Origin: Dehalococcoidia bacterium
GTDB lineage: Bacteria; Chloroflexota; Dehalococcoidia; Plut-88900
Direction: 5' to 3'
DNA: 64,000 nt
Assembly: GCA_965197645.1 (NCBI GenBank)
Contig: OZ240219.1
Location: forward strand, 2,144,001 to 2,208,000
Shown here: positions 41,584 through 52,301 of the stretch, piece by piece
Numbering within the stretch: the stretch's first letter is position 1
How the letters are laid out: every line of letters begins with the position of its first letter
Made by a program: the position numbers and the translations under genes
Notes under the pieces: model-generated
Databases searched by the model: none
The model's input: only the letters and a program-made list of their open reading frames with translations
What the model was told of the DNA's origin: nothing

Positions 41584-41740
41584 GGACAATCGCAGATGGG
41601 TCGTGGACAATGGGCCTCCACTGAAAACTGGGACATTGAGCCGTAATTCAGCCAATACCACAAATCCTTTGCCGTAAGAAATACGGATATGTCCATAAAC
41701 ATCCTTAACAATAGGCTACAAGCGTGATATAATGGACATG
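41584..41740. promoter_or_regulatory. Divergent control region with GGACAW repeats, a CCGTA-N5-TACGG palindrome and an extended -10
   Basis: GGACAAT at 41584 and 41605, GGACATT at 41631, ATGTCC at 41689, GGACATG at 41734; CCGTAAGAAATACGG 41672-41686; TGATATAAT 41725-41733. Confidence 0.55.
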
Positions 41741-41751
41741 GACTCACCGTT

Positions 41752-42483
41752 ATGATGAGTGGTGAAGCTACAAGGGACTTACTACCCCCCTACCCTCCCT
41801 ACTCCGCGTGGCGCCAGCTGCTGCAGGAGCTGCGGTCGGATGTCCCGGCCCGGATAGACCAGAGCTATCTCAGGCTGCACAAATACAACCAGTCCACCGT
41901 GTCCATGTTGCAGAACGCCCTCCGATTTTTGCAGTTGATCGATCAACAGGACGCGCCGACTCCGGAGCTACGATCATTGGTCAAGTCCGAGGGTGAGGAG
42001 TACCAGACCCAATTGCGCCAACTGCTCGGGCAGAGCTACGGGCCGCTGATCTCCGGAATCGATCTCTCTAACATCACCCCGGACCTGCTGCGGGAGCAGT
42101 TCCAGGCGCTGGGGGCCAGGGGCGATGTTGCGCGTAAGTGCGGCTCCTTCTTCGTAGCCCTGGCCAAAGACGCCGGGCTGCGTATCTCGCCTCACCTCCG
42201 ACTCCGCCAGCGCCAGCCCGGCGGACAGACAACTTCTCAACGTCCATCCAAGCCCAAGCGCTCCGCCCCAAATCAGCCCCAGCGCCAGGCCCCGAAGCCG
42301 GTTGCGGAACCTGTAGCGTCCAACAAGGCGCCGGACAACTCCGCCATCAGCCTTATCCTGGACAAGTTTCCTGCCTTTGACCCCAACTGGGACCAGGAGA
42401 CGGTAGAAAGGTGGCGGGACAGCATGGAAGCGCTTCTCAAGACCGCCCTGGGCAAAGGGAACGCTCCGCAGCCGAGCAGCTAG
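41752..42483 (+). CDS. DUF5343-like protein, putative DNA-binding
   Basis: PPY...W..LL..L...PARIDQSY, LRFLQLID, KC.SFF.ALAKDAG, K/R/P-rich linker, LDKFPAFDPNW C-terminal domain. Confidence 0.65.
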   Translation: MMSGEATRDLLPPYPPYSAWRQLLQELRSDVPARIDQSYLRLHKYNQSTVSMLQNALRFLQLIDQQDAPTPELRSLVKSEGEEYQTQLRQLLGQSYGPLISGIDLSNITPDLLREQFQALGARGDVARKCGSFFVALAKDAGLRISPHLRLRQRQPGGQTTSQRPSKPKRSAPNQPQRQAPKPVAEPVASNKAPDNSAISLILDKFPAFDPNWDQETVERWRDSMEALLKTALGKGNAPQPSS

Positions 42484-42539: not shown

Positions 42540-43130
42540 ATGGTCAAACCTCCGATAGGGATAGACCTGGATGGGGTAATATGCCGCCCTCCGTTGGGTC
42601 TTAACCTAAGCATATACAGGGGACCCTATGTCGGCCGCAAGAAACGAAGTCTCTATCCTAAGTTCGGCGAGAATCCCCTCGTCTCCTTGGTCTTGACATT
42701 GAAATACATGGGCCGCCGGCCGATGTATGATGCCCGCTCCGGCCTGCAGGCCATTCGGGAGCACAGAGACCTGTTCCTCGTCACCAGCCGAAACAGCCTG
42801 GTCCATGATCAGGTGGTGGCATGGCTCTCCCACAACGATCTTCTCCCGCTCTTTTCCGCCATCCACACCAACGACTCCGGGCTCCCTTCGCCCGAGTTTA
42901 AAGAGCGGAAGGTGCGTGAGCTGGGCATATCGGAGTTCGTCGACGACGATGGTCGTGTCGCCGACTATCTCGCCCGGCGAGGCCTTGCTCGAATCTACCT
43001 GAGAGACTGGCCCCGGAACCACGGCTACCGGTACGCGGACAATGTGACGCGAGTCCCTTCCCTACTCCGGGTGGCAACCCTCCTGGCCGAGCGGGATGGC
43101 GAAATGCCGCCGGGTGCACCGGCGGCATGA
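42540..43130 (+). CDS. HAD-superfamily phosphatase, 5'(3')-nucleotidase-like
   Basis: IDLDGVI, VTSR, K, FVDD motifs. Confidence 0.75.
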   Translation: MVKPPIGIDLDGVICRPPLGLNLSIYRGPYVGRKKRSLYPKFGENPLVSLVLTLKYMGRRPMYDARSGLQAIREHRDLFLVTSRNSLVHDQVVAWLSHNDLLPLFSAIHTNDSGLPSPEFKERKVRELGISEFVDDDGRVADYLARRGLARIYLRDWPRNHGYRYADNVTRVPSLLRVATLLAERDGEMPPGAPAA

Positions 43131-43146
43131 AAGATGCCCCTGATAT

Positions 43147-43175
43147 TTGACGGGCATATTTTGTTACCTTACACT
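43147..43175 (+). promoter_or_regulatory. sigma70-type promoter of the lipid operon
   Basis: TTGACG-N17-TACACT. Confidence 0.55.
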
Positions 43176-43222
43176 CAGTGCAGGATTCCTCATCTCACTG
43201 AATACCGATATCGAGTCGCCGA

Positions 43223-43966
43223 ATGAAGGCAGTTCTACTGGCAGGGGGGCGGGGAACACGGTTGCGCCCCCTCACCGATGACATCCCGAAGTCGATGGTG
43301 CCCGTGTGCAATAAGCCGATCCTGCAATGGCAGCTGGAGTGGTTGAAGGCACAGGGTGTCAGCGAGTTCGTCCTATCTCTGGGCCACCTGCCCGATAGGG
43401 TCCGCGATCACTTTGGCGATGGCGGAGACTTCGGCGTGTCGATCCAGTATGCTGTGGAAGACGAGCCGTTAGGCACCGCCGGCGGGCTGCGAAGGGCACT
43501 GGAAGTAGCCCGGATCGATGGCCCCTTCTTCGCAACCAACGGAGATGTGCTCACCAATCTGAACCCCGGCCGATTGGAGGCCCAGCGTCGGGCCTTGAAG
43601 GCGGTGGGCGGGATCAGCCTCGTGGCCCTGACCTCGCCCTATGGGATCGTCGAGATGGGTGGAAACGGTCTGGTCCGGTCCTTCCGTGAGAAACCCACCC
43701 TGCCCGACTACTGGCTCAGCGCGGGGGTCTACAGCTTCGGCCCCGAGATACTATCCTACCTCCCTGTTAGGGGAAGCCTGGAGCACGAGGTGTTCCCTCT
43801 GCTGTCCAGGCGTAATCTTCTGGCGGCATACAAGTTCGATAGCTGCCTGTGGCGCTCCATCGATGGACACAAGGACCTGGAGGAAGCGTCAGAGCATATG
43901 GCGAGCATGGCCGATCCGACATTGAGCGCTACGCCCCAATCCCTCAGTCCTCAGCCCACTCCGTGA
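43223..43966 (+). CDS. Sugar-phosphate nucleotidyltransferase family protein
   Basis: LAGGRGTRLRPLT..PKSM, EPLGTAG, NGD, FREKP. Confidence 0.88.
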   Translation: MKAVLLAGGRGTRLRPLTDDIPKSMVPVCNKPILQWQLEWLKAQGVSEFVLSLGHLPDRVRDHFGDGGDFGVSIQYAVEDEPLGTAGGLRRALEVARIDGPFFATNGDVLTNLNPGRLEAQRRALKAVGGISLVALTSPYGIVEMGGNGLVRSFREKPTLPDYWLSAGVYSFGPEILSYLPVRGSLEHEVFPLLSRRNLLAAYKFDSCLWRSIDGHKDLEEASEHMASMADPTLSATPQSLSPQPTP

Positions 43967-43987
43967 GTACACCTATCTACGCAGCCC

Positions 43988-46291
43988 ATGGGAAAGCTTA
44001 GCGAATTCTACTCGGGCAAGACGCTATTCCTCACGGGAGGAACGGGCCTGGTCGGCAAGGTACTGGTGGAGGCGATGCTCCGCCAGCTCTCCGATATCGA
44101 GAAGATATACGTTCTAATACGCCCCAAGCCCCGCCCGGGCGGCGTCACCGTCACTAGCGAAGACCGGCTTCGGCAGGAGGTCCAGGGCTCAGCCGCCTTC
44201 GACCTGCCGCGATCAGAACAGAGAGAGACTCTCTCCGATCTCTTCCAAGCCAAGGTCAAGGCGGTGGAGGGCGACCTCGCGTTGGAGAAGATGGGCCTCG
44301 ATGACGATACCTACCGGACGCTGCAGCGAGAGGTCAATATCCTGATCAACTGCGCTGCTATCGTCTCCTTCGATGCCGCCATAGATAACGCCCTGGCCCT
44401 GAATGCCCTGGGCCCCAGACGGCTCCTGGAGTTCGCCAGAGGGTGTGAGGACGTCGGCGTGGTCCAGGTCTCCACCTGTTATGTGAATGCGGCCCGCACC
44501 GGGTCCATCTATGAAGAGCCCTTAGACCCTCGATGGACCGTCGGCCAGGCTGGCGGCGTCGATAAGAGACCTTACGAGGTCGACGAGGAGATTGCCGCCA
44601 TTGCCAAACGCGCCCGGGAGATTAGAGAGGCCTCGGGAGAACCCAAAACAAAAGCCGATACCGAACTGATTGACGGCAAGGTCTCCGAGTTCGGCATGAA
44701 GTGGGCCCAGGCCCGCGGCTGGCACGATGTATACACCTTCACCAAGGCCATGGGCGAGCAGATATTCGGCAAGGATTTGGGCACGACCCGGGGTGCGATC
44801 ATCCGACCCGCCATCATCGAAAGCGTGTGGCGTTCCCCCCTACCCGGCTGGCTGAACGGGTATCGAATGCTGGACCCTCTCATCGTAGCCTACGGCCGCG
44901 GCCGTTTGATCGATTTCCCCGGCAACGGATCGAGCATACTCGACATAATACCTGTTGATTTAGTCGTAAACTCCATTCTGGCCATAGCTCGCGAGGTATA
45001 TCAGGGCCGGTCCAAACCGGTCTATCAGATAGCGTCCGGAATGGAGAATCCGTTGACCCTCCAGGGGTTTGCCGACCTGGTGGACGAGTACTTCCAGGAG
45101 AACCCCTTCGAGAGCCAGACGAACGGTCAGGGACGCGGCAGGGAGCTTAAGAAGCCCACCTTTCCCAATACTCAGACCTTCCTTCGCAGGTTGAAGCGCC
45201 GGTACTACCTTCCTGCTAAGGTGGCCAAAGCCCTGGTGACACCCCTATCCTTTACACACTGGGGCCGGGCCAAGAAGGTGGATCTCCGTACCAAGCTCTC
45301 CGCTCTGGAGCGTCTTCATCAATACGGGCGGCTCTACGGTCCCTACGCCGAGAGCAACTGCGAGTTTCAGACCGTTAACACCAGGGAGGCCTGGCGAGCC
45401 CTCGATGCCGAGGACCGGGAGAGCTTCAACTTCGACATCTCCCAGCTTGACTGGCCCACCTACATCAAACGGGTACACGTGCCCGGGGTGAAGAAATATC
45501 TACTGGGCATGACTGATGAGCCACCGAACGAAGCGGAATTGGAAGCGGCCCTGGAGGCGCACGGCCCAGCTTCGCCACTGCCCCAATCGTTGATGGGCAA
45601 CCTGCCCACCTTCGAGGAGCTGGAGCCGTGGCTGAGGCCAAATATAGTCAGGAGCACCATCAGGAAGATGGGTTCGGCCGTGGTGTTTATCGGGTTCAAT
45701 CTCTGGGTTCGCCACCATTCCAAAGGGTTGGAGAACGTGCCGGACAAGGGGCCCTTCATAGTCGCTTCCAACCACTCCAGCCATCTGGACGCTCCGGCCA
45801 TTCTCTTCGCCCTATCAAAGCGCCCCTTTGAGATCCATCCGACGGCGGCCAAGGACTACTTCTTTGGGGACAAGCTCAAAGCGATTCTGGTCCGCAGCGT
45901 GTTCCGAGCAATCCCCTTCGAAAGGCGCGGCCCGGCAACCGATGGTCTTCACCTACCCCTTGGCATACTGAAAATGGGACGCCCCATGGTCTTCTTCCCC
46001 GAAGGCGGCAGAAGTAAGTCCGGCAAGATCCTGACCTTCAAGAACGGGATAGGTATGCTTGGCCTTATGTCAGGCGCTCCCGTGGTACCCGCTCGAATCT
46101 CTGGATCGTACCAGTCCATGCCTAAAGGCAGCCGTTTCCCCAAACGAGGCCGGGTGACGGTCCGGTTCGGGCCCCCGATTCTCACCGAGCCCTACAGGGC
46201 GCGTATCGATGCCACCAGCATCGCCGAGGTCTGCCGAGAGCTTTCCAGCGACGTGCAGAAGGCCGTCGAGGCGCTGAATGGCAAACGATAG
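43988..46291 (+). CDS. Fatty acyl-CoA reductase (male-sterility type) fused to a PlsC-type acyltransferase
   Basis: TGGTGLVGKV, VSTCYV, YTFTKAMGE, IIRPAII, DIIPVDLV, FNFD...DW..Y; then NHSSHLD, FPEGGRS, FKNG. Confidence 0.9.
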   Translation: MGKLSEFYSGKTLFLTGGTGLVGKVLVEAMLRQLSDIEKIYVLIRPKPRPGGVTVTSEDRLRQEVQGSAAFDLPRSEQRETLSDLFQAKVKAVEGDLALEKMGLDDDTYRTLQREVNILINCAAIVSFDAAIDNALALNALGPRRLLEFARGCEDVGVVQVSTCYVNAARTGSIYEEPLDPRWTVGQAGGVDKRPYEVDEEIAAIAKRAREIREASGEPKTKADTELIDGKVSEFGMKWAQARGWHDVYTFTKAMGEQIFGKDLGTTRGAIIRPAIIESVWRSPLPGWLNGYRMLDPLIVAYGRGRLIDFPGNGSSILDIIPVDLVVNSILAIAREVYQGRSKPVYQIASGMENPLTLQGFADLVDEYFQENPFESQTNGQGRGRELKKPTFPNTQTFLRRLKRRYYLPAKVAKALVTPLSFTHWGRAKKVDLRTKLSALERLHQYGRLYGPYAESNCEFQTVNTREAWRALDAEDRESFNFDISQLDWPTYIKRVHVPGVKKYLLGMTDEPPNEAELEAALEAHGPASPLPQSLMGNLPTFEELEPWLRPNIVRSTIRKMGSAVVFIGFNLWVRHHSKGLENVPDKGPFIVASNHSSHLDAPAILFALSKRPFEIHPTAAKDYFFGDKLKAILVRSVFRAIPFERRGPATDGLHLPLGILKMGRPMVFFPEGGRSKSGKILTFKNGIGMLGLMSGAPVVPARISGSYQSMPKGSRFPKRGRVTVRFGPPILTEPYRARIDATSIAEVCRELSSDVQKAVEALNGKR

Positions 46292-47012
46292 CGCCGGAGC
46301 AAACGTAGGCGCCTTCTTCGACGTCGATGGGACTATCGCCAACTCCAACCTCATCCACCCCTACGCTGACTTCCGTCTGAGCAACGCCGGCCCCATCGGT
46401 AAGATGGCATGGCTCGCCCGAATCGCCTCCAGTCTGCCCTACTACGCTGTCCTGGATACCCTCAACAGGGCCTGGTTCAACCGGGCGTTCATTCGCAGCT
46501 ACAAGGGAGTGCACGTGGAACGGCTCTACTCATGGGCCCGGTCTCGAGGCCGGGAGTTCTGGTCGAGCCGCCTGTATCCCGCTGCCGTGACCCGGATTCA
46601 GTTTCACCAGGAGCAGGGCCACAAGATCGTGCTGGTGACCGGAGGGTTGAAGCCTGTCGTCGAGCCGCTGGCCCAAATGCTGAATGCCGATGGTCTTGGC
46701 GCCGTGGTGCCGGAGACTGTGGGCTCCCGTTTGACGGGCGAGACCGTCGGAGGCGTACTCTCCGGAGCAGCCAAGGCGAAGACCGCCGTCCGGATGGCTG
46801 ACGAGCTCGGCATAGACCTGAACAGCAGCTATGCCTACGCCGACAGCTACGCCGACGTTGAGTTCCTCCAGTGCGCCGCTCATCCGATAGCGGTCAATCC
46901 GGACCGCCGGTTACGCAGAGTCGTCCGAGCCAGGGGGTGGGAATCTCACCGGTGGGCCAAGGCCAGGGCCTCCGAACTATCGCTCTCCACCACCTCGATG
47001 AAAAGGCGGTAG
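46278..47012 (+). CDS. HAD-IB family phosphatase
   Basis: AFFDVDGT, LVTG, K, YAYADSYAD, AVNPD. Confidence 0.88.
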   Translation: MANDSAGANVGAFFDVDGTIANSNLIHPYADFRLSNAGPIGKMAWLARIASSLPYYAVLDTLNRAWFNRAFIRSYKGVHVERLYSWARSRGREFWSSRLYPAAVTRIQFHQEQGHKIVLVTGGLKPVVEPLAQMLNADGLGAVVPETVGSRLTGETVGGVLSGAAKAKTAVRMADELGIDLNSSYAYADSYADVEFLQCAAHPIAVNPDRRLRRVVRARGWESHRWAKARASELSLSTTSMKRR

Positions 47013-47037
47013 ACTTTCAGCAATCCGGTGATCGACG

Positions 47038-48276
47038 ATGAAAGCCCTCCTCTTCAAGAAGAGCATCCCCAGATATCTATGGACTCGTGTACTGACCTCG
47101 GGATCGTCCAGGTTGGCTACAGCGCCGGGTTCCTGCCTGTCCCTGCAGGACGTTCCGGCCCCCCGTTTGCCCAACTCCTCCTGGGTACGGGTGAGGCCTC
47201 TCCTCAGCGGTATATGCGGCTCTGATCTATCGGTGATCAGGTGCCAGGGAAGCGCCTTTCTTTCCGGCATGACCTCTTTCCCGTTCATCCCGGGGCACGA
47301 GGTGTACGGGGAGGTGATCGAGACGGGACCGGAGGTGAAGACCGTCGGCCTCGAAGATCGGGTCGTGGTGGAGCCTGCCCTCGGCTGTGAAGTCCGAGGT
47401 TTCCCGGATCTCTGTACGGCATGTCGGGACGGCAGGCATGCCAACTGCCTGCGGGTTACTCAAGGAGACATTGCAGAAGGCCTGCAAACAGGTTTTTGTC
47501 GCAGTGTCGGCGGTGGCTGGGGAGACCAGCTGGTCGCCCACCAAAGCCAGCTTCACAAAACTGCACCGGACCTGCCGGCCGAGGCCGCCGTGCTGGTGGA
47601 GCCCTTCAGCTGCGCCGTACACGCGGTGTTGCGATCTGGCGTTGGCCAAAACGACCGTGTGTTGGTAGTGGGTTGCGGCCCCATCGGGCTCCTCACCGTC
47701 GCTGCGTTGCGGAGCCTGGTGGCCAACTGCGAGATCGTCGTCGTTGCTAAACATCCGCATCAGCGGGCGCTGGCACAATCTCTCGGAGCCGACCACATCG
47801 TCTCAGAGGGGCAGAAGGGCTACGAAAGGCTGGCCAGCCTAACCGAGGCGCAGATCAGGAAGACGGCCCTGGGCAAACCAGCCGTTCTAGGTGGTTTCTC
47901 CCACGTTTTCGAGTGTGTCGGTTCGCCGGGGGCGCTGGAAGACGCCGTGCGGTGGGCATCGGACAACGGAACCGTGATGATGCAGGGAATGCCCTCCGGG
48001 GCAGGGGCCGATCTGGTACCCTTGTGGTACAAGCAGGTCAGCCTAGTCGGGAGCTACGCCTACGGATTGGAAGACGTGAAGGGCGGACCGGTCAAGACCT
48101 TCCAGCTGGCGTTGGACCTGATGAGAAAGGACGGGCTGGCCGAAAGGCTGGCCCAACTGGTGCGGCACAAGTACCCGTTGAGCCGCTACAAAGAGGCCAT
48201 CTATACGGCTATGCACGCCGGACGGTTGGGCAGTGTGAAGACCGTCTTCGATGTCACCGACGGCGCTCTAAACTAG
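47038..48276 (+). CDS. Zn-dependent alcohol/polyol dehydrogenase
   Basis: SGICGSD, PGHE, four-Cys structural Zn site, GCGPIG. Confidence 0.88.
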   Translation: MKALLFKKSIPRYLWTRVLTSGSSRLATAPGSCLSLQDVPAPRLPNSSWVRVRPLLSGICGSDLSVIRCQGSAFLSGMTSFPFIPGHEVYGEVIETGPEVKTVGLEDRVVVEPALGCEVRGFPDLCTACRDGRHANCLRVTQGDIAEGLQTGFCRSVGGGWGDQLVAHQSQLHKTAPDLPAEAAVLVEPFSCAVHAVLRSGVGQNDRVLVVGCGPIGLLTVAALRSLVANCEIVVVAKHPHQRALAQSLGADHIVSEGQKGYERLASLTEAQIRKTALGKPAVLGGFSHVFECVGSPGALEDAVRWASDNGTVMMQGMPSGAGADLVPLWYKQVSLVGSYAYGLEDVKGGPVKTFQLALDLMRKDGLAERLAQLVRHKYPLSRYKEAIYTAMHAGRLGSVKTVFDVTDGALN

Positions 48277-48288
48277 ACGAGGACAAAC

Positions 48289-49899
48289 ATGGCGAAAACC
48301 CCTACCCAAGCCCTTGAACTGGACAAGGAGAAGCTTGTCACCCGAGTGGAGAAGTCAGGCGAGCGGTATCTGTTCTTCTACGGCGAGGGGTTTCGGTACG
48401 AGAAGCTGCCGGTGGGAACGCGAGTCGTCTACCCGCCTCCACCCCTCCCCCCCATCGAAGACGTGGACGCGGCCATCGAGCAGGCACTGGAGAACCCACT
48501 GGACGCCGATCCGCTCTCGGCCCAGCTCCGAGCCGGGATGAAGCTGACCATCGCCTTCGACGACATCTCCCTGCCCCTGCCCCCGATGCGTTCGCCCGAC
48601 ATCCGGAAGAGGGTCATCGAGAAGGTGGTCGCCAAAGCGACAGAGCGCGGCGTCGAGGACATCCACCTCATCGCGGCCCTGGGTCTTCATCGCTCCATGA
48701 CCCCCGGCGAGCTGAAGGGAATCTTGGGTCGAAAGCTGTTCAACCAGTTTCACCCGGACAGGCTGTACAACTTCGATGCCGAGGACAAGGAGAACCTCAT
48801 AGTCCTGGGAAAGACCTCCCGCGGGCAGGAGGTGGAGATATCCCGAAGGGTGGGCGAGTCGGACCTGCTGGTGTACGTCAACATCAACCTGGTCTCCATG
48901 GATGGGGGCGAGAAATCGATCAACACGGGGCTGGTCAGCTATCGCAGCATCCGCCATCATCACAACGTCGATACGCTGATGCACTCCGAGTCCTACATGG
49001 ACCCGACGAGGTCAGCCCTCCACGACGCCTGCCAGGGCATGCAGACCGTAGTCGACGAGAACCTCAAGGTGTTCAAGATCGAGACCGCCATCAACACCAA
49101 CGCCTTCCCATCGGTCCTGAGGCACCTCCAGATGCAGGAGTCCGAGTGGAAGATATGGGACAGAGCGACATTCCATGCCAACCGGTTGTCCCTGGACCGC
49201 ATGCCCTTCCAGCTCCGCTGGAACATATTCCAGAAGATGAAGTCTCCCTACGGGATGACCGACATCGCCGCCGGCGCCACTGCCCCGGTGCACGATCAGA
49301 TACTGAGCAGCGTATACCGGCAGCAGGCTGTACCCGTATCCGGTCAGGCCGACGTGATGGTGTTAGGGATGCCGTACCTCAGTCCCTACAACGTCAACTC
49401 CTATTTGAACCCGATACTGGTCCACGTTCTTGGAGTGGGGTACGTCTTCAATCTGTATCGCGGGAAGCCGTTGGTCCGTCGAGGCGGGGTGATGATATTC
49501 ACCCATCCCCTCGAAGAACGGTTCAACGAGACCCACCATCCGTCATACGTGGACTTCTATAACAACGTGCTGACCGAGACACGGGACGCCGCCGAGATCG
49601 AGTCCCGGTTCGAGGAGGAGTTCGCTCACAACCAGCGATACATAGACCTGTACCGAAACTCCTACGCCTACCACGGCGTCCATCCCTTCTACATGTGGTA
49701 CTGGGCCTGCTACGGCCAGGATTATCTGGGCAGGATCATCGTGGTGGGCGCAAAGGACAAGGCAGTGGCCGACAGGCTGGGATACGAGACCGCCCCCAAC
49801 ATGGAGATGGCCCTCGCCATGGCCCAGGATACCGTAGGCAACAACCCCGAAATATCCATGTACCACTTCCCGCCCATATTCCTGTGCGACGTAGACTAG
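48289..49899 (+). CDS. LarA/DUF2088 (lactate racemase domain)-like protein
   Basis: ALENP....PL, IAFDDISLP, ALGLHRSMT, GGEKS. Confidence 0.75.
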   Translation: MAKTPTQALELDKEKLVTRVEKSGERYLFFYGEGFRYEKLPVGTRVVYPPPPLPPIEDVDAAIEQALENPLDADPLSAQLRAGMKLTIAFDDISLPLPPMRSPDIRKRVIEKVVAKATERGVEDIHLIAALGLHRSMTPGELKGILGRKLFNQFHPDRLYNFDAEDKENLIVLGKTSRGQEVEISRRVGESDLLVYVNINLVSMDGGEKSINTGLVSYRSIRHHHNVDTLMHSESYMDPTRSALHDACQGMQTVVDENLKVFKIETAINTNAFPSVLRHLQMQESEWKIWDRATFHANRLSLDRMPFQLRWNIFQKMKSPYGMTDIAAGATAPVHDQILSSVYRQQAVPVSGQADVMVLGMPYLSPYNVNSYLNPILVHVLGVGYVFNLYRGKPLVRRGGVMIFTHPLEERFNETHHPSYVDFYNNVLTETRDAAEIESRFEEEFAHNQRYIDLYRNSYAYHGVHPFYMWYWACYGQDYLGRIIVVGAKDKAVADRLGYETAPNMEMALAMAQDTVGNNPEISMYHFPPIFLCDVD

Positions 49900-49902
49900 A
49901 CA

Positions 49903-50811
49903 ATGGATATAGGTCAGCGTTGGACGGTGATCGCCAACCCCGTATCGGGAAAGGGTAAGGGGCGAAAGCTGGGCGGCCGGGTTGCTAGGCTGCTGGCCCG
50001 TTCCGGCGTAGAGTCCAACCTCCTCTGGACCAGCGGCCCCGGAGATGCGGAACGGCTGGCCGGCGAGTCGATATCCAAGGGAGTTGACGGCATAGTTGCC
50101 TGTGGCGGCGACGGCACTCTTCACGAGGTGGTCAACGGCGTGTACGGCTCTTCCGAGCACCCCGAAACCGTGCCCATCGCCGTGGCTCCCGCCGGCCGGT
50201 GCAACGATTTCCGCCGCACCCTGAATCTGCCTAAAGAGCCGATGGAGACCGTAGGAAGTATCGTGGATGGCTCCATCAAGCGGGTAGACCTTGGACGGAT
50301 CGAGGGCCGCTACTTCACCACGGTGGCAACCCTGGGCTTCGATAGCGCCGTGAGCCGGTACGTAGCCAGCGGCAGACATCCCTTCTTTCTCACCGGCGCC
50401 CCAGCCTACGTGTACGCAGTCCTCGCTCAGCTGATCAGCTACCACGATGTCCCGGTCAGATTGAAGGGGGACTCTCTGGACTTCGAAGGCGCCGTCTTCC
50501 TCGCTGCCACGGGCAACACCCCCGTCTATGGCGGCGCCATGAAGATAGCCCCCAGCGCCGTGGCGGACGATGGCTTCTTGGACCTGTGCCTCGTCAGGTC
50601 CGTCAATCGCTGGGAGGTGCTGAAGATGCTGCCTCGGATATTCAATGGGGGCCACGTCCACCATCCGGCGGTATCAATGCACCGGCTAACCCGATTGGCC
50701 ATCGAATCGGACGAGAGCCTTCCCGTCTGGGCGGACGGTGAGCCGATGGCGCAGACGCCGACAACCATAGAGGTGGTGCCCGAGGGTCTCTCTATAGTGG
50801 CGCCGGGGTAG
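49903..50811 (+). CDS. Diacylglycerol/lipid kinase family protein (YegS/DgkB)
   Basis: NPVSGKG, GGDGTLHEVVNG, PAG..NDF, GFDS, YGG, DDG, ADGE. Confidence 0.9.
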   Translation: MDIGQRWTVIANPVSGKGKGRKLGGRVARLLARSGVESNLLWTSGPGDAERLAGESISKGVDGIVACGGDGTLHEVVNGVYGSSEHPETVPIAVAPAGRCNDFRRTLNLPKEPMETVGSIVDGSIKRVDLGRIEGRYFTTVATLGFDSAVSRYVASGRHPFFLTGAPAYVYAVLAQLISYHDVPVRLKGDSLDFEGAVFLAATGNTPVYGGAMKIAPSAVADDGFLDLCLVRSVNRWEVLKMLPRIFNGGHVHHPAVSMHRLTRLAIESDESLPVWADGEPMAQTPTTIEVVPEGLSIVAPG

Positions 50812-50833
50812 CCCGGCCTCTCCACGACGCGAA

Positions 50834-50872
50834 AAGAGGCGCCCCGATTTGACCGGAGCGCCTCTTCTCTTT
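50834..50872 (+). terminator. Intrinsic terminator of the lipid operon
   Basis: AAGAGGCGC...GCGCCTCTT hairpin followed by CTCTTT. Confidence 0.7.
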
Positions 50873-51015
50873 CAGCCTGTCCTATAAAGACGGATGTTTT
50901 TCTCCCAGCCGCCCGCCCTCAGACGGTTTTGTAGCCGGGGGCACATCCCCCAAGCCCCCTGCCAGAGGGAAGTTTCCCTCTGGACTCCCTCTATTCGAGG
51001 TTCTCAGGCAGGCTT
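50873..51015. mobile_element. Degenerate MITE copy (family A)
   Basis: Colinear with 52778-52920 (CCGCCCGCCCTC, GGGGGCACATCCCCC, CCAGAGGGAAGTTTCCCTCTGG); eroded terminal repeats. Confidence 0.7.
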
Positions 51016-51032: not shown

Positions 51033-52205
51033 TCAGTTCATGTGGTATTCCCGCAGCATGTTGGCGCCGAGGATCTTGGTCTGGTCCTCCTCCGAAAGCT
51101 CGCTGATGTTCTTCTTCAGCGAACCCAGCGGGTCGCCATGTCCCTCGGGGTGGGGGTAATCGGAGCCCCAGCCCAGCTTGTGGGCCCCTACCAACTGGGC
51201 CATGGAGGTGAAGGTGGGCTCGTCGGCCTCACCGGTTATCCAGCACTGACGCTCGAAGTACTCGCTCGGCATCATCTTCATCTTGGTGTTGGTGACGTAA
51301 CCGGTCTTGTAGAACTCCCGCCGGTCAATCTTCTCGTCCATCAGGTACAGCCAGTGGGCGATCCACCCACAGCCCGTCTCAACCACACCCAGGCTCAGAT
51401 TGGGGAATCGATCGAAGACCGCTCCCTGGAAGAAGCTGGTGAAGGCCAGCTGGCAGTCCCCGTTGAAGTAGACGTTGAAAAACCAGGGGTTGACCGTCCA
51501 GCTCGATGGGTAGAGCTCGTGGCCGACGTGCTTCGGAGTGCTGCTCACGTGTATCCCTATCGGCAGCCCGATCTCTTCGCACTCGGCCCAGAAGGGATCG
51601 TAGTACTCCTCGCCATAGGGGATGCCGTTGGTGGGGTTGGGGAACAGATATACGCCCTTTACGCCCCGCTCGGCGGCTCGGCGCACTTCCTTCACGGCCA
51701 GGTTAACATCCATCAGCGATATCGACGCCGTGGCGATGAGCCGGTCCGGATAGGGCTTGCAGAAATCTGTGATCCAGTCGTTGTAGACGCTGGTGTGGGC
51801 GGCCGCCAGCTCGGCGTCACCGCACTCGGATTGCCAGTTCAGTCCCAGCGAGGGGTAGAGGACAGAGACATCGATACCGTGCTCATCGTTCCATGCGACA
51901 CGGGCGTGGGGATCGGTGCCACCCGGAATCTGGCTGATCTCCCAGTCCAGGGTGCCGGGAACGAAGCCATCCTTCGTCCGTCGGGAGATCTCATCGTCCA
52001 ACCCGCCCAGGCCTCCGAGGAGCCCACCATTGAGACAGGCGGACTTCTTGCCGTCTATCTCCAGGTACTCCAGCTGGTCCTCGCCCCTGGAGATGCGCAT
52101 TGCCCTATCCCGGTACTTCGGATCCAGGTTGTCCAGCCACAGACGCCCCGGCTCCAGGATGTGGCCATCCGCGTCGACTATTTTGCTGCCATTGGTCCCC
52201 GCCAT
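51033..52205 (-). CDS. Amidohydrolase_2 family protein
   Basis: DADGHILEP, YNDW, YDPFW, IH, ETG.GW, WGSDYPH. Confidence 0.88.
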   Translation of the reverse strand: MAGTNGSKIVDADGHILEPGRLWLDNLDPKYRDRAMRISRGEDQLEYLEIDGKKSACLNGGLLGGLGGLDDEISRRTKDGFVPGTLDWEISQIPGGTDPHARVAWNDEHGIDVSVLYPSLGLNWQSECGDAELAAAHTSVYNDWITDFCKPYPDRLIATASISLMDVNLAVKEVRRAAERGVKGVYLFPNPTNGIPYGEEYYDPFWAECEEIGLPIGIHVSSTPKHVGHELYPSSWTVNPWFFNVYFNGDCQLAFTSFFQGAVFDRFPNLSLGVVETGCGWIAHWLYLMDEKIDRREFYKTGYVTNTKMKMMPSEYFERQCWITGEADEPTFTSMAQLVGAHKLGWGSDYPHPEGHGDPLGSLKKNISELSEEDQTKILGANMLREYHMN

Positions 52206-52301
52206 AGTGCACTCCTTCCAAACTCGCAACACCCGAGTAGCAGTTGGTTGACTCGATTATAGTTAAAGGACTGGTGCAGGTCAAAACCTGGGCAACGGGC
52301 T

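Follow-up and report, generated by a model that had tools for sequence, protein, structure and literature searches.

How alkyl ether lipids are formed in aerobic bacteria without alkyl-dihydroxyacetone phosphate (alkyl-DHAP) synthase (AGPS), the route that involves ElbD, has been an open question since 2014. In the available excerpts of the accounts on Myxococcus xanthus (PMC9131029, PMC13012113), most ether lipids are described as depending on elbD, with the AGPS route playing a minor part; an effect of gene loss on ether lipids is reported there for elbD and, in part, for elbB and elbE, and ElbC appears as a function-unassigned gene flanking elbD. The operon elbA-E encodes among others a HAD protein (ElbB), ElbC, the multidomain ElbD and a member of the NAD-epimerase family (ElbE). 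According to the same excerpts, M. xanthus additionally holds a trio of a fatty acyl reductase (FAR) fused to an acyltransferase (FARAT, MXAN_1675), AGPS (MXAN_1676) and a reductase (MXAN_1674), and FARAT is also present in Tetrahymena and many protists. Here, a locus of six genes is compared with these systems; it lies in a stretch of 64,000 nucleotides (the window; OZ240219.1, positions 2,144,001-2,208,000) of a Dehalococcoidia bacterium (GCA_965197645.1), the genome of which consists of one contig of 3.21 Mb and is 94% complete. With a probability of about 0.65, the locus is the Dehalococcoidia form of an AGPS-independent, elb-type bacterial ether-lipid cassette.

An ether-lipid-type pathway had been proposed from the letters of the window (the original prediction); the comparative evidence given below supports this candidate. 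The six co-directional open reading frames (+ strand, 43223-50811) are spaced by 21, -14 (overlap), 25, 12 and 3 bases and are thus as tightly packed as predicted, and all six domain assignments were borne out by Pfam and NCBIfam (family cut-offs as given):

43223..43966, + strand: sugar/alcohol-phosphate nucleotidylyltransferase, accessory (PF00483, E 4.6e-37)
43988..46291, + strand: FARAT (NAD_binding_4 + Sterile + Acyltransferase; Pfam, motifs), 767 aa
46278..47012, + strand: HAD-IB phosphatase, ElbB-like (TIGR01490, 115.5 bits, cut-off 98.3)
47038..48276, + strand: Zn medium-chain dehydrogenase, polyol/ketose-reductase-like, candidate alkyl-DHAP reductase (ADH_N + ADH_zinc_N)
48289..49899, + strand: LarA homologue (LarAH) of groups 14/15/16 (ElbC type), presumed nickel-pincer (NPN) enzyme (NF052592, 818.3 bits, cut-off 740)
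49903..50811, + strand: YegS/DgkB-type lipid kinase (DAGK_cat + YegS_C; TIGR00147, 162.7 bits, cut-off 118.65)

The Pfam domain limits of the fusion protein are 15-330 (NAD_binding_4), 437-506 (Sterile) and 578-705 (Acyltransferase). The translations contain motifs that we take to be hallmarks of the respective families, i.e. the reductase shows GGTGxxG and YTFTK, the acyltransferase NHxSHxD and FPEGGR, the HAD protein DVDGT and the kinase GGDG, and the dehydrogenase has the Cys/His/Glu zinc ligands together with four structural Cys. The fusion had been likened to both ElbD and the eukaryotic FAR-DHAPAT proteins: The latter comparison held, since its closest known counterpart is, judged by domain content and phylogeny, FARAT (MXAN_1675, Tetrahymena); ElbD as the nearest counterpart had to be given up. 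As predicted, the adenylation and carrier domains of ElbD are missing (no AMP-binding or PP-binding match in the fusion).

With the elb system, the locus shares the HAD-IB phosphatase, the LarAH14/15/16 homologue and the combination of a reductase and an acyltransferase on one chain, and AGPS is not needed in either; the probable correspondence of the HAD and LarA-like proteins to ElbB and ElbC had been overlooked in the original prediction. It differs from elb in that its reductase has a Sterile domain and falls into the FARAT clade, in that a Zn-dehydrogenase occupies the place of the ElbA/ElbE-type NAD-epimerase proteins, and in the additional YegS-type kinase and nucleotidyltransferase. 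With the FARAT/AGPS pathway (also the peroxisomal one of FAR, GNPAT and AGPS), it shares the same FAR-acyltransferase fusion of one clade and the frequent YegS-type kinase, whereas AGPS and the short-chain reductase are missing at the locus and HAD, LarAH and Zn-dehydrogenase are found instead.

Exchange of neighbours around one FARAT clade

The FARAT protein as a single query retrieved no match in public genome contigs, and an alignment query was needed to reach its relatives. Outside Chloroflexota, the same fusion was found in Akkermansiaceae, Puniceicoccaceae, Trueperaceae, Phycisphaeraceae, Hydrogenedentota and Wenzhouxiangella. The gene 3' of FARAT in five non-Chloroflexota lineages (Verrucomicrobiota, Deinococcota, Planctomycetota, Hydrogenedentota and Wenzhouxiangella) encodes a protein of 613-657 aa with FAD_binding_4 and FAD-oxidase_C domains; these five proteins are 61-70% identical to one another, and the one searched matched guinea-pig AGPS (4bby) over nearly its full length (E 1.7e-139). 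A short-chain reductase (Pfam) follows AGPS in Puniceicoccaceae and Akkermansiaceae, and the Akkermansiaceae cluster additionally carries a YegS-type kinase and a second PlsC. FARAT, AGPS and reductase make up the canonical set for ether lipids, as in M. xanthus.

Neighbour counts were compared between 30 Chloroflexota-titled loci and 50 loci of other phyla. In the former, HAD was present in 30 (directly adjoining the fusion in each), LarAH in 26, the Zn-dehydrogenase in 25 and the kinase in 22, with neither AGPS nor the short-chain reductase in any; in the latter, AGPS was found in 26, the short-chain reductase in 22 (orthologues by tblastn), the kinase in 20 and HAD in one, with LarAH and the Zn-dehydrogenase in none. 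AGPS adjoins ten of the 12 full-length fusions outside Chloroflexota, and the remaining two stand at contig ends just after the fusion. A quick maximum-likelihood tree was built from 68 reductase domains (support by Shimodaira-Hasegawa-like approximate likelihood ratio test, SH-aLRT). In this tree, one clade of 30 rows (SH-aLRT 99) unites all 17 Chloroflexota FARAT rows, including this locus, with 10 AGPS-linked FARATs; the actinobacterial reductases form a clade of their own (support 100). AGPS and reductase are thus exchanged for HAD, LarAH and Zn-dehydrogenase around one FARAT clade.

The exchange extends to the genome level. The absence of AGPS from the operon, stated in the original prediction, applies to the whole 3.21-Mb genome: With five AGPS queries, the best match showed 27-29% identity and covered the generic FAD-oxidase core alone. 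A search of 151 sampled genomes of the class yielded no AGPS orthologue of 61-70% identity (three matches at E <= 1e-60, with 32-35% identity). No orthologue of the short-chain reductase is present at the locus, a Zn-dependent medium-chain dehydrogenase standing there instead. LarAH passed its cut-off elsewhere in the genome in three of four Chloroflexota genomes with only fusion and HAD at the locus (the fourth is a 1.6-Mb metagenome-assembled genome, MAG) and in a fifth, the locus of which already carries LarAH; it did so in none of five AGPS-type genomes. The anaerobic PlsA/Ger-type route was set aside, as the single Pfam family searched for it, the HGD-D domain, has no member in the source genome.

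A FAR and an acyltransferase would already suffice to form alcohol and ester, and the AGPS and HGD-D searches revealed no enzyme of proven ether-forming chemistry in the genome; the fatty alcohols might accordingly be esterified to wax esters or other neutral or acylated lipids without any ether, with LarAH, dehydrogenase and phosphatase tailoring the head group or a hydroxylated chain. This explanation is regarded as unlikely, as members of this FARAT clade have a genuine AGPS as partner in five other phyla, and the linkage with HAD-IB and LarAH (72 of the best 80 LarAH loci, see below) and with the elb operon points to glycerol-phosphate chemistry. Moreover, PlsC-type acyltransferases are, to our knowledge, not the known wax synthases.

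The assignment of the host to Chloroflexota was correct: Close relatives in the public genome collection bear the title of Dehalococcoidia MAGs, and one that of SAR202. The order fusion-HAD-dehydrogenase-LarAH-kinase is kept in all ten other genomes of the same family that were fetched, and the gene set recurs in other Chloroflexota, also in the orders dehydrogenase-LarAH-kinase-fusion-HAD and LarAH-dehydrogenase divergent from fusion-HAD; in consequence, the gene set is far above chance, and the expected co-occurrence in other genomes was found. LarAH passed its cut-off in eight of the 151 sampled genomes of the class, seven of them within the family of the locus, which marks it as a patchy trait. 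In contrast to the five genes from fusion to kinase, the sixth member of the predicted pathway is not conserved: The nucleotidyltransferase occurs at this locus and in one of the ten same-family genomes (G002), as well as in one of the 30 Chloroflexota loci, and its score lies under every NCBIfam equivalog cut-off. It is a lineage-specific, accessory add-on as judged from its distribution, and the predicted step of a nucleotide-activated head group is weak because of this rare conservation.

Side observations concern individual fusions and related clusters. In another genome (G005), residues 1-213 and 216-766 of FARAT are matched separately, pointing to a frameshift or a split gene, and FARAT of G002 comprises 828 aa with insertions in the reductase and the linker. 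In many Latescibacterota MAGs, a stand-alone FAR is encoded 2-3.5 kb upstream of an AGPS gene, behind which come genes for a short-chain reductase and a YegS-type kinase; this conserved arrangement looks like an unfused AGPS-type ether-lipid cluster.

LarAH loci across phyla and the LarAH active site

An alignment of eight Chloroflexota LarAH proteins matched at least 586 genomic stretches. Among the best 80 of these, FAR was present in 73, PlsC in 78, HAD in 77, the Zn-dehydrogenase in 63 and the DAG-type kinase (DAGK) in five (three of them Chloroflexota); FAR, HAD, LarAH and PlsC occurred together in 72, and AGPS in none. These 80 loci belong mostly to Acidimicrobiales, Kribbella, Nocardioides and Solirubrobacterales, together with Gemmataceae and a Planctomycetota MAG. 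The co-occurrence spans several phyla and three different gene orders and fusion patterns. The actinobacterial operon (Frankia, Kribbella, Nocardioides, Acidimicrobiales) has the arrangement FAR-HAD fusion/Zn-dehydrogenase/LarAH group 14/PlsC and comprises the same five functions as the locus (49-59% identity in LarAH, 36-46% in the dehydrogenase), but its reductase is fused to HAD rather than to the acyltransferase (in Kribbella likewise with a Sterile domain), and the kinase is rare.

Deviating layouts were observed in a Planctomycetota MAG (separate FAR approximately 2 kb upstream, then PlsC-HAD-dehydrogenase-LarAH-kinase), in two Gemmataceae loci (HAD-dehydrogenase-LarAH without FAR or PlsC in reach) and in the Acidimicrobiia MAGs Ca. 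Poriferisocius and Ca. Poriferisodalis (FAR-HAD/LarAH/PlsC, with the Zn-dehydrogenase missing), the genus names of which suggest sponge symbionts. In metagenome runs holding the locus of the window, conserved LarAH segments (48320-49885) reached 10-25 times the depth of the flanks, which points to several LarAH-bearing organisms in the same samples.

The family model NF052592 covers LarAH groups 14, 15 and 16 of Desguin 2020, and the gene neighbours tabulated there (Table S1) are of the same kind: for group 14, COG0204 (acyltransferase, 88%), COG0560 (HAD, 88%), COG1063 (Zn-dehydrogenase, 88%, mislabelled there) and COG3320 (thioester reductase, 50%); for group 15, COG0451 (150%), COG0560 (100%) and COG1022 (acyl-CoA synthetase, 75%); for group 16, COG0204 and COG0560 (100% each). 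M. xanthus MXAN_1529 is a member of group 15, as are Anaeromyxobacter proteins (Desguin 2020). The adjacent MXAN_1528 is annotated as a FadD-like ligase, as ElbD is described. Based on gene order, COG context and the assignment of elbD to MXAN_1528, which is assumed here, ElbC is taken to be the group-15 LarA homologue MXAN_1529.

The LarA homologues that come nearest among solved structures (9q2u, 9q3j) are suspected to act on carbohydrates, the dehydrogenase is similar to polyol dehydrogenases, and an enzyme of Phytophthora named "LarAH15" in a 2024 paper epimerises gluconate (whether this numbering equals group 15 of 2020 could not be established). The locus might thus unite two unrelated modules side by side, one for carbohydrates or sugar acids (nucleotidyltransferase, dehydrogenase, LarAH, kinase, phosphatase) and one for lipids (FARAT); given that LarAH is accompanied by FAR, PlsC and HAD in nearly all of the best 80 loci across several phyla, and that the nucleotidyltransferase is almost never present, such a coincidence is very improbable. 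A function of LarAH as gluconate 2-epimerase was likewise not adopted, as the Phytophthora enzyme has a GntE-like pocket and groups 14-16 of 2020 stand in a lipid-gene context.

The LarAH of the locus (Lar_N, PF09861, E 1.6e-39) is the only Lar_N protein of the source genome, which encodes LarB (286.4 bits, cut-off 175), LarC (437.3, cut-off 22.1) and LarE (338, cut-off 150) at dispersed positions; the cofactor pathway is in consequence most simply explained as being kept for LarAH. In an alignment of 102 distinct LarAH sequences (49-74% identity to that of the locus), 130 of 536 columns were at least 98% identical, among them D91/D92, H134-R135, N198, N200, D205-G206-G207-K209, H225-N226 and a C-terminal His/Tyr/Trp cluster. 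According to a HMMER alignment to 9q2u and the group-14 row of the supplementary table of Desguin 2020, D91/D92, K209 and H225 are the equivalents of D72, K184 and H200, i.e. probably the cofactor-binding Asp, the cofactor-linking Lys and the nickel-binding His, and H134 conserves the place of the first catalytic His (His108 of Lactobacillus plantarum LarA). As in the lactate racemases, these places are invariant. In contrast to them, the protein is approximately 110 residues longer, stands in a lipid-gene context and has lost the second catalytic His (His174), the corresponding loop reading VNINL with invariant N198 and N200; His174 is absent in groups 14 and 15 (Gatreddi et al. 2025), and the signature rows of Desguin 2020 reveal the replacement of the carboxylate-binding Arg75 and Lys298 in the same groups. 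Because of these losses, and because the cofactor-loaded LarAH14 of Frankia was inactive on the substrates tried (2-hydroxy acids only), LarAH likely catalyzes a reaction that is neither a racemization nor directed at hydroxy acids. A function in the conversion of long-chain 1,2-diols or 2-hydroxy fatty acids was dropped in view of the missing carboxylate-binding residues and the linkage of the FARAT clade to AGPS elsewhere.

LarA enzymes invert C2-hydroxyl centres by hydride transfer, and a hydride shift to an adjacent atom has been suggested for homologues of this kind (Desguin 2020), in which the second histidine and both carboxylate-binding residues are no longer present; LarAH might thus act as an epimerase or isomerase at the C2 hydroxyl of the backbone and lead to an unusual backbone (a 1,2-diol or glycerol-1-phosphate-type lipid) instead of an ether. 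A single-histidine enzyme appears ill-suited to a two-way inversion, however, and such an activity would leave both the exchange with AGPS and reductase and the ether-lipid phenotype of elbD unexplained, which makes this alternative quite unlikely.

Accessory genes and flanking sites

Further features of the window next to the operon are:

42540..43130, + strand: HAD-like 196-aa protein, possible accessory phosphatase (DxDG, T/S and DD motifs read in the translation)
43147..43175, + strand: promoter-like site, TTGACG-17 nt-TACACT (9/12 matches)
50877..50893, + strand: terminator-like hairpin, then T run (5-bp stem, weak)
51033..52232, - strand: amidohydrolase (Amidohydro_2, Pfam), next gene downstream, convergent

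The operon had been predicted to possess its own promoter and terminator; both candidate sites are weak, the promoter-like sites of the region not exceeding the number in shuffled sequences (2 versus 2.8 +/- 1.7) and the terminator-like sites numbering 11 versus 5.7 +/- 2.5. Neither site was judged to stand out from chance, so that this part of the prediction is not borne out. The best promoter-like site of the region (41705-41733, 11/12 matches, extended TG) precedes the gene of a 243-aa protein (41752-42483, + strand; weak DUF5343 match, E 0.0017) that is located beside ftsZ in nine of ten same-family genomes. Downstream, a 406-aa open reading frame (51042-52262, + strand) overlaps the amidohydrolase gene and is probably its shadow, as the family match occurs on the minus strand only. 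Contigs of a sponge metagenome run labelled as metatranscriptome matched 43366-43556 (three differences), 50365-50615 (none) and 50619-50801 (two); the remaining operon was uncovered and carry-over of DNA is possible, so that these contigs demonstrate neither transcription nor an operon transcript.

The 196-aa HAD-like protein yielded no Pfam match at E <= 0.5; its language-model neighbours are FCP1-homology/NT5C-like HAD clusters (0.93-0.97), to be read as a lead only. As it lies directly upstream of the fusion in nine of the 30 Chloroflexota loci (eight species of a neighbouring genus, one listed twice), at the place that the nucleotidyltransferase has in the window, it possibly serves the system as a second phosphatase.

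A candidate route to the ether bond without AGPS

Since the FARAT clade is shared and its neighbours are exchanged, HAD and LarAH, possibly together with the Zn-dehydrogenase, would perform the same net conversion to 1-O-alkyl-glycerol-3-phosphate as AGPS and reductase. In the proposed route, the FAR half of FARAT would convert acyl-CoA or acyl-ACP (acyl carrier protein) to fatty alcohol (or aldehyde), and its acyltransferase half would acylate a triose- or glycerol-phosphate. LarAH, with the nickel-pincer cofactor as transient hydride carrier, would take over the function of AGPS and form the ether in a redox-neutral hydride shuttle, yielding 1-O-alkyl-DHAP or 1-O-alkyl-glycerol-3-phosphate. 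The Zn-dehydrogenase would reduce the C2 ketone: The solved structures closest to it are those of threonine 3-dehydrogenase, NADP(H) ketose reductase and sorbitol/xylitol dehydrogenases, and it fits an alkyl-DHAP reductase because these enzymes act on a secondary alcohol beside a primary one. The YegS-type kinase would phosphorylate alkyl(acyl)glycerol, and the HAD-IB phosphatase would reverse this step.

That the ElbC-type LarAH is itself the ether-forming enzyme, i.e. a nickel-pincer "borrowed hydride" alkyl-DHAP/alkyl-glycerol-3-phosphate synthase of AGPS-less aerobic bacteria, is a tentative proposal with the odds against it. The enzyme would abstract the hydride at C2 of a glycerol- or triose-phosphate hemiacetal and hand it back to the neighbouring carbon. 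In this way, 1-O-alkyl-DHAP and water would arise without net redox change, either from fatty alcohol and glyceraldehyde-3-phosphate or from fatty aldehyde and glycerol-3-phosphate.

Several points weigh against the assignment of the locus to an elb-type ether-lipid cassette. We know of no precedent for the nickel-pincer cofactor in ether-bond chemistry, and the role of HAD fits no simple scheme. The tree comes from a quick search and has SH-aLRT values as its only support, and the swap follows phylum lines and may reflect one or few historical events; M. xanthus has both routes, so that the cassettes are not strictly exclusive. The lipid product of the cassette, in the organism and its relatives, is predicted from genes alone, the inactivity of Frankia LarAH14 mentioned above applies here as well, and the equation of ElbC with MXAN_1529 is based on gene order, COG context and the assumed identity of elbD. 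Finally, the available excerpts of the M. xanthus elb accounts contain no elbC knockout (PMC9131029, PMC13012113).

The elb-type cassette was known, though biochemically unsolved; new are the FARAT form of Chloroflexota and its swap against AGPS. No paper containing both "lactate racemase" and "ether lipid" was found in the literature searched. According to the available part of a recent study (10.64898/2026.06.23.733905), sponges contain monoalkyl glycerol ethers in abundance, the microbial source of which is unknown; Chloroflexota are mentioned there solely as carriers of ElbD and/or Ger homologues, and that part describes no FARAT/LarAH cluster.

Alkyl ether lipids of this kind blur the "lipid divide" between archaea and bacteria and are used as environmental biomarkers. 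The compact set of five genes extends the candidate cassette to Dehalococcoidia/SAR202-type Chloroflexota and represents a natural exchange experiment, in which one FARAT clade is combined with either AGPS and reductase or HAD, LarAH and Zn-dehydrogenase; by this exchange, LarAH stands out as a candidate for the missing step. If ether formation by LarAH held true, it would constitute a new reaction class for the nickel-pincer cofactor, and ether-lipid synthesis would have been solved a second time by convergence.

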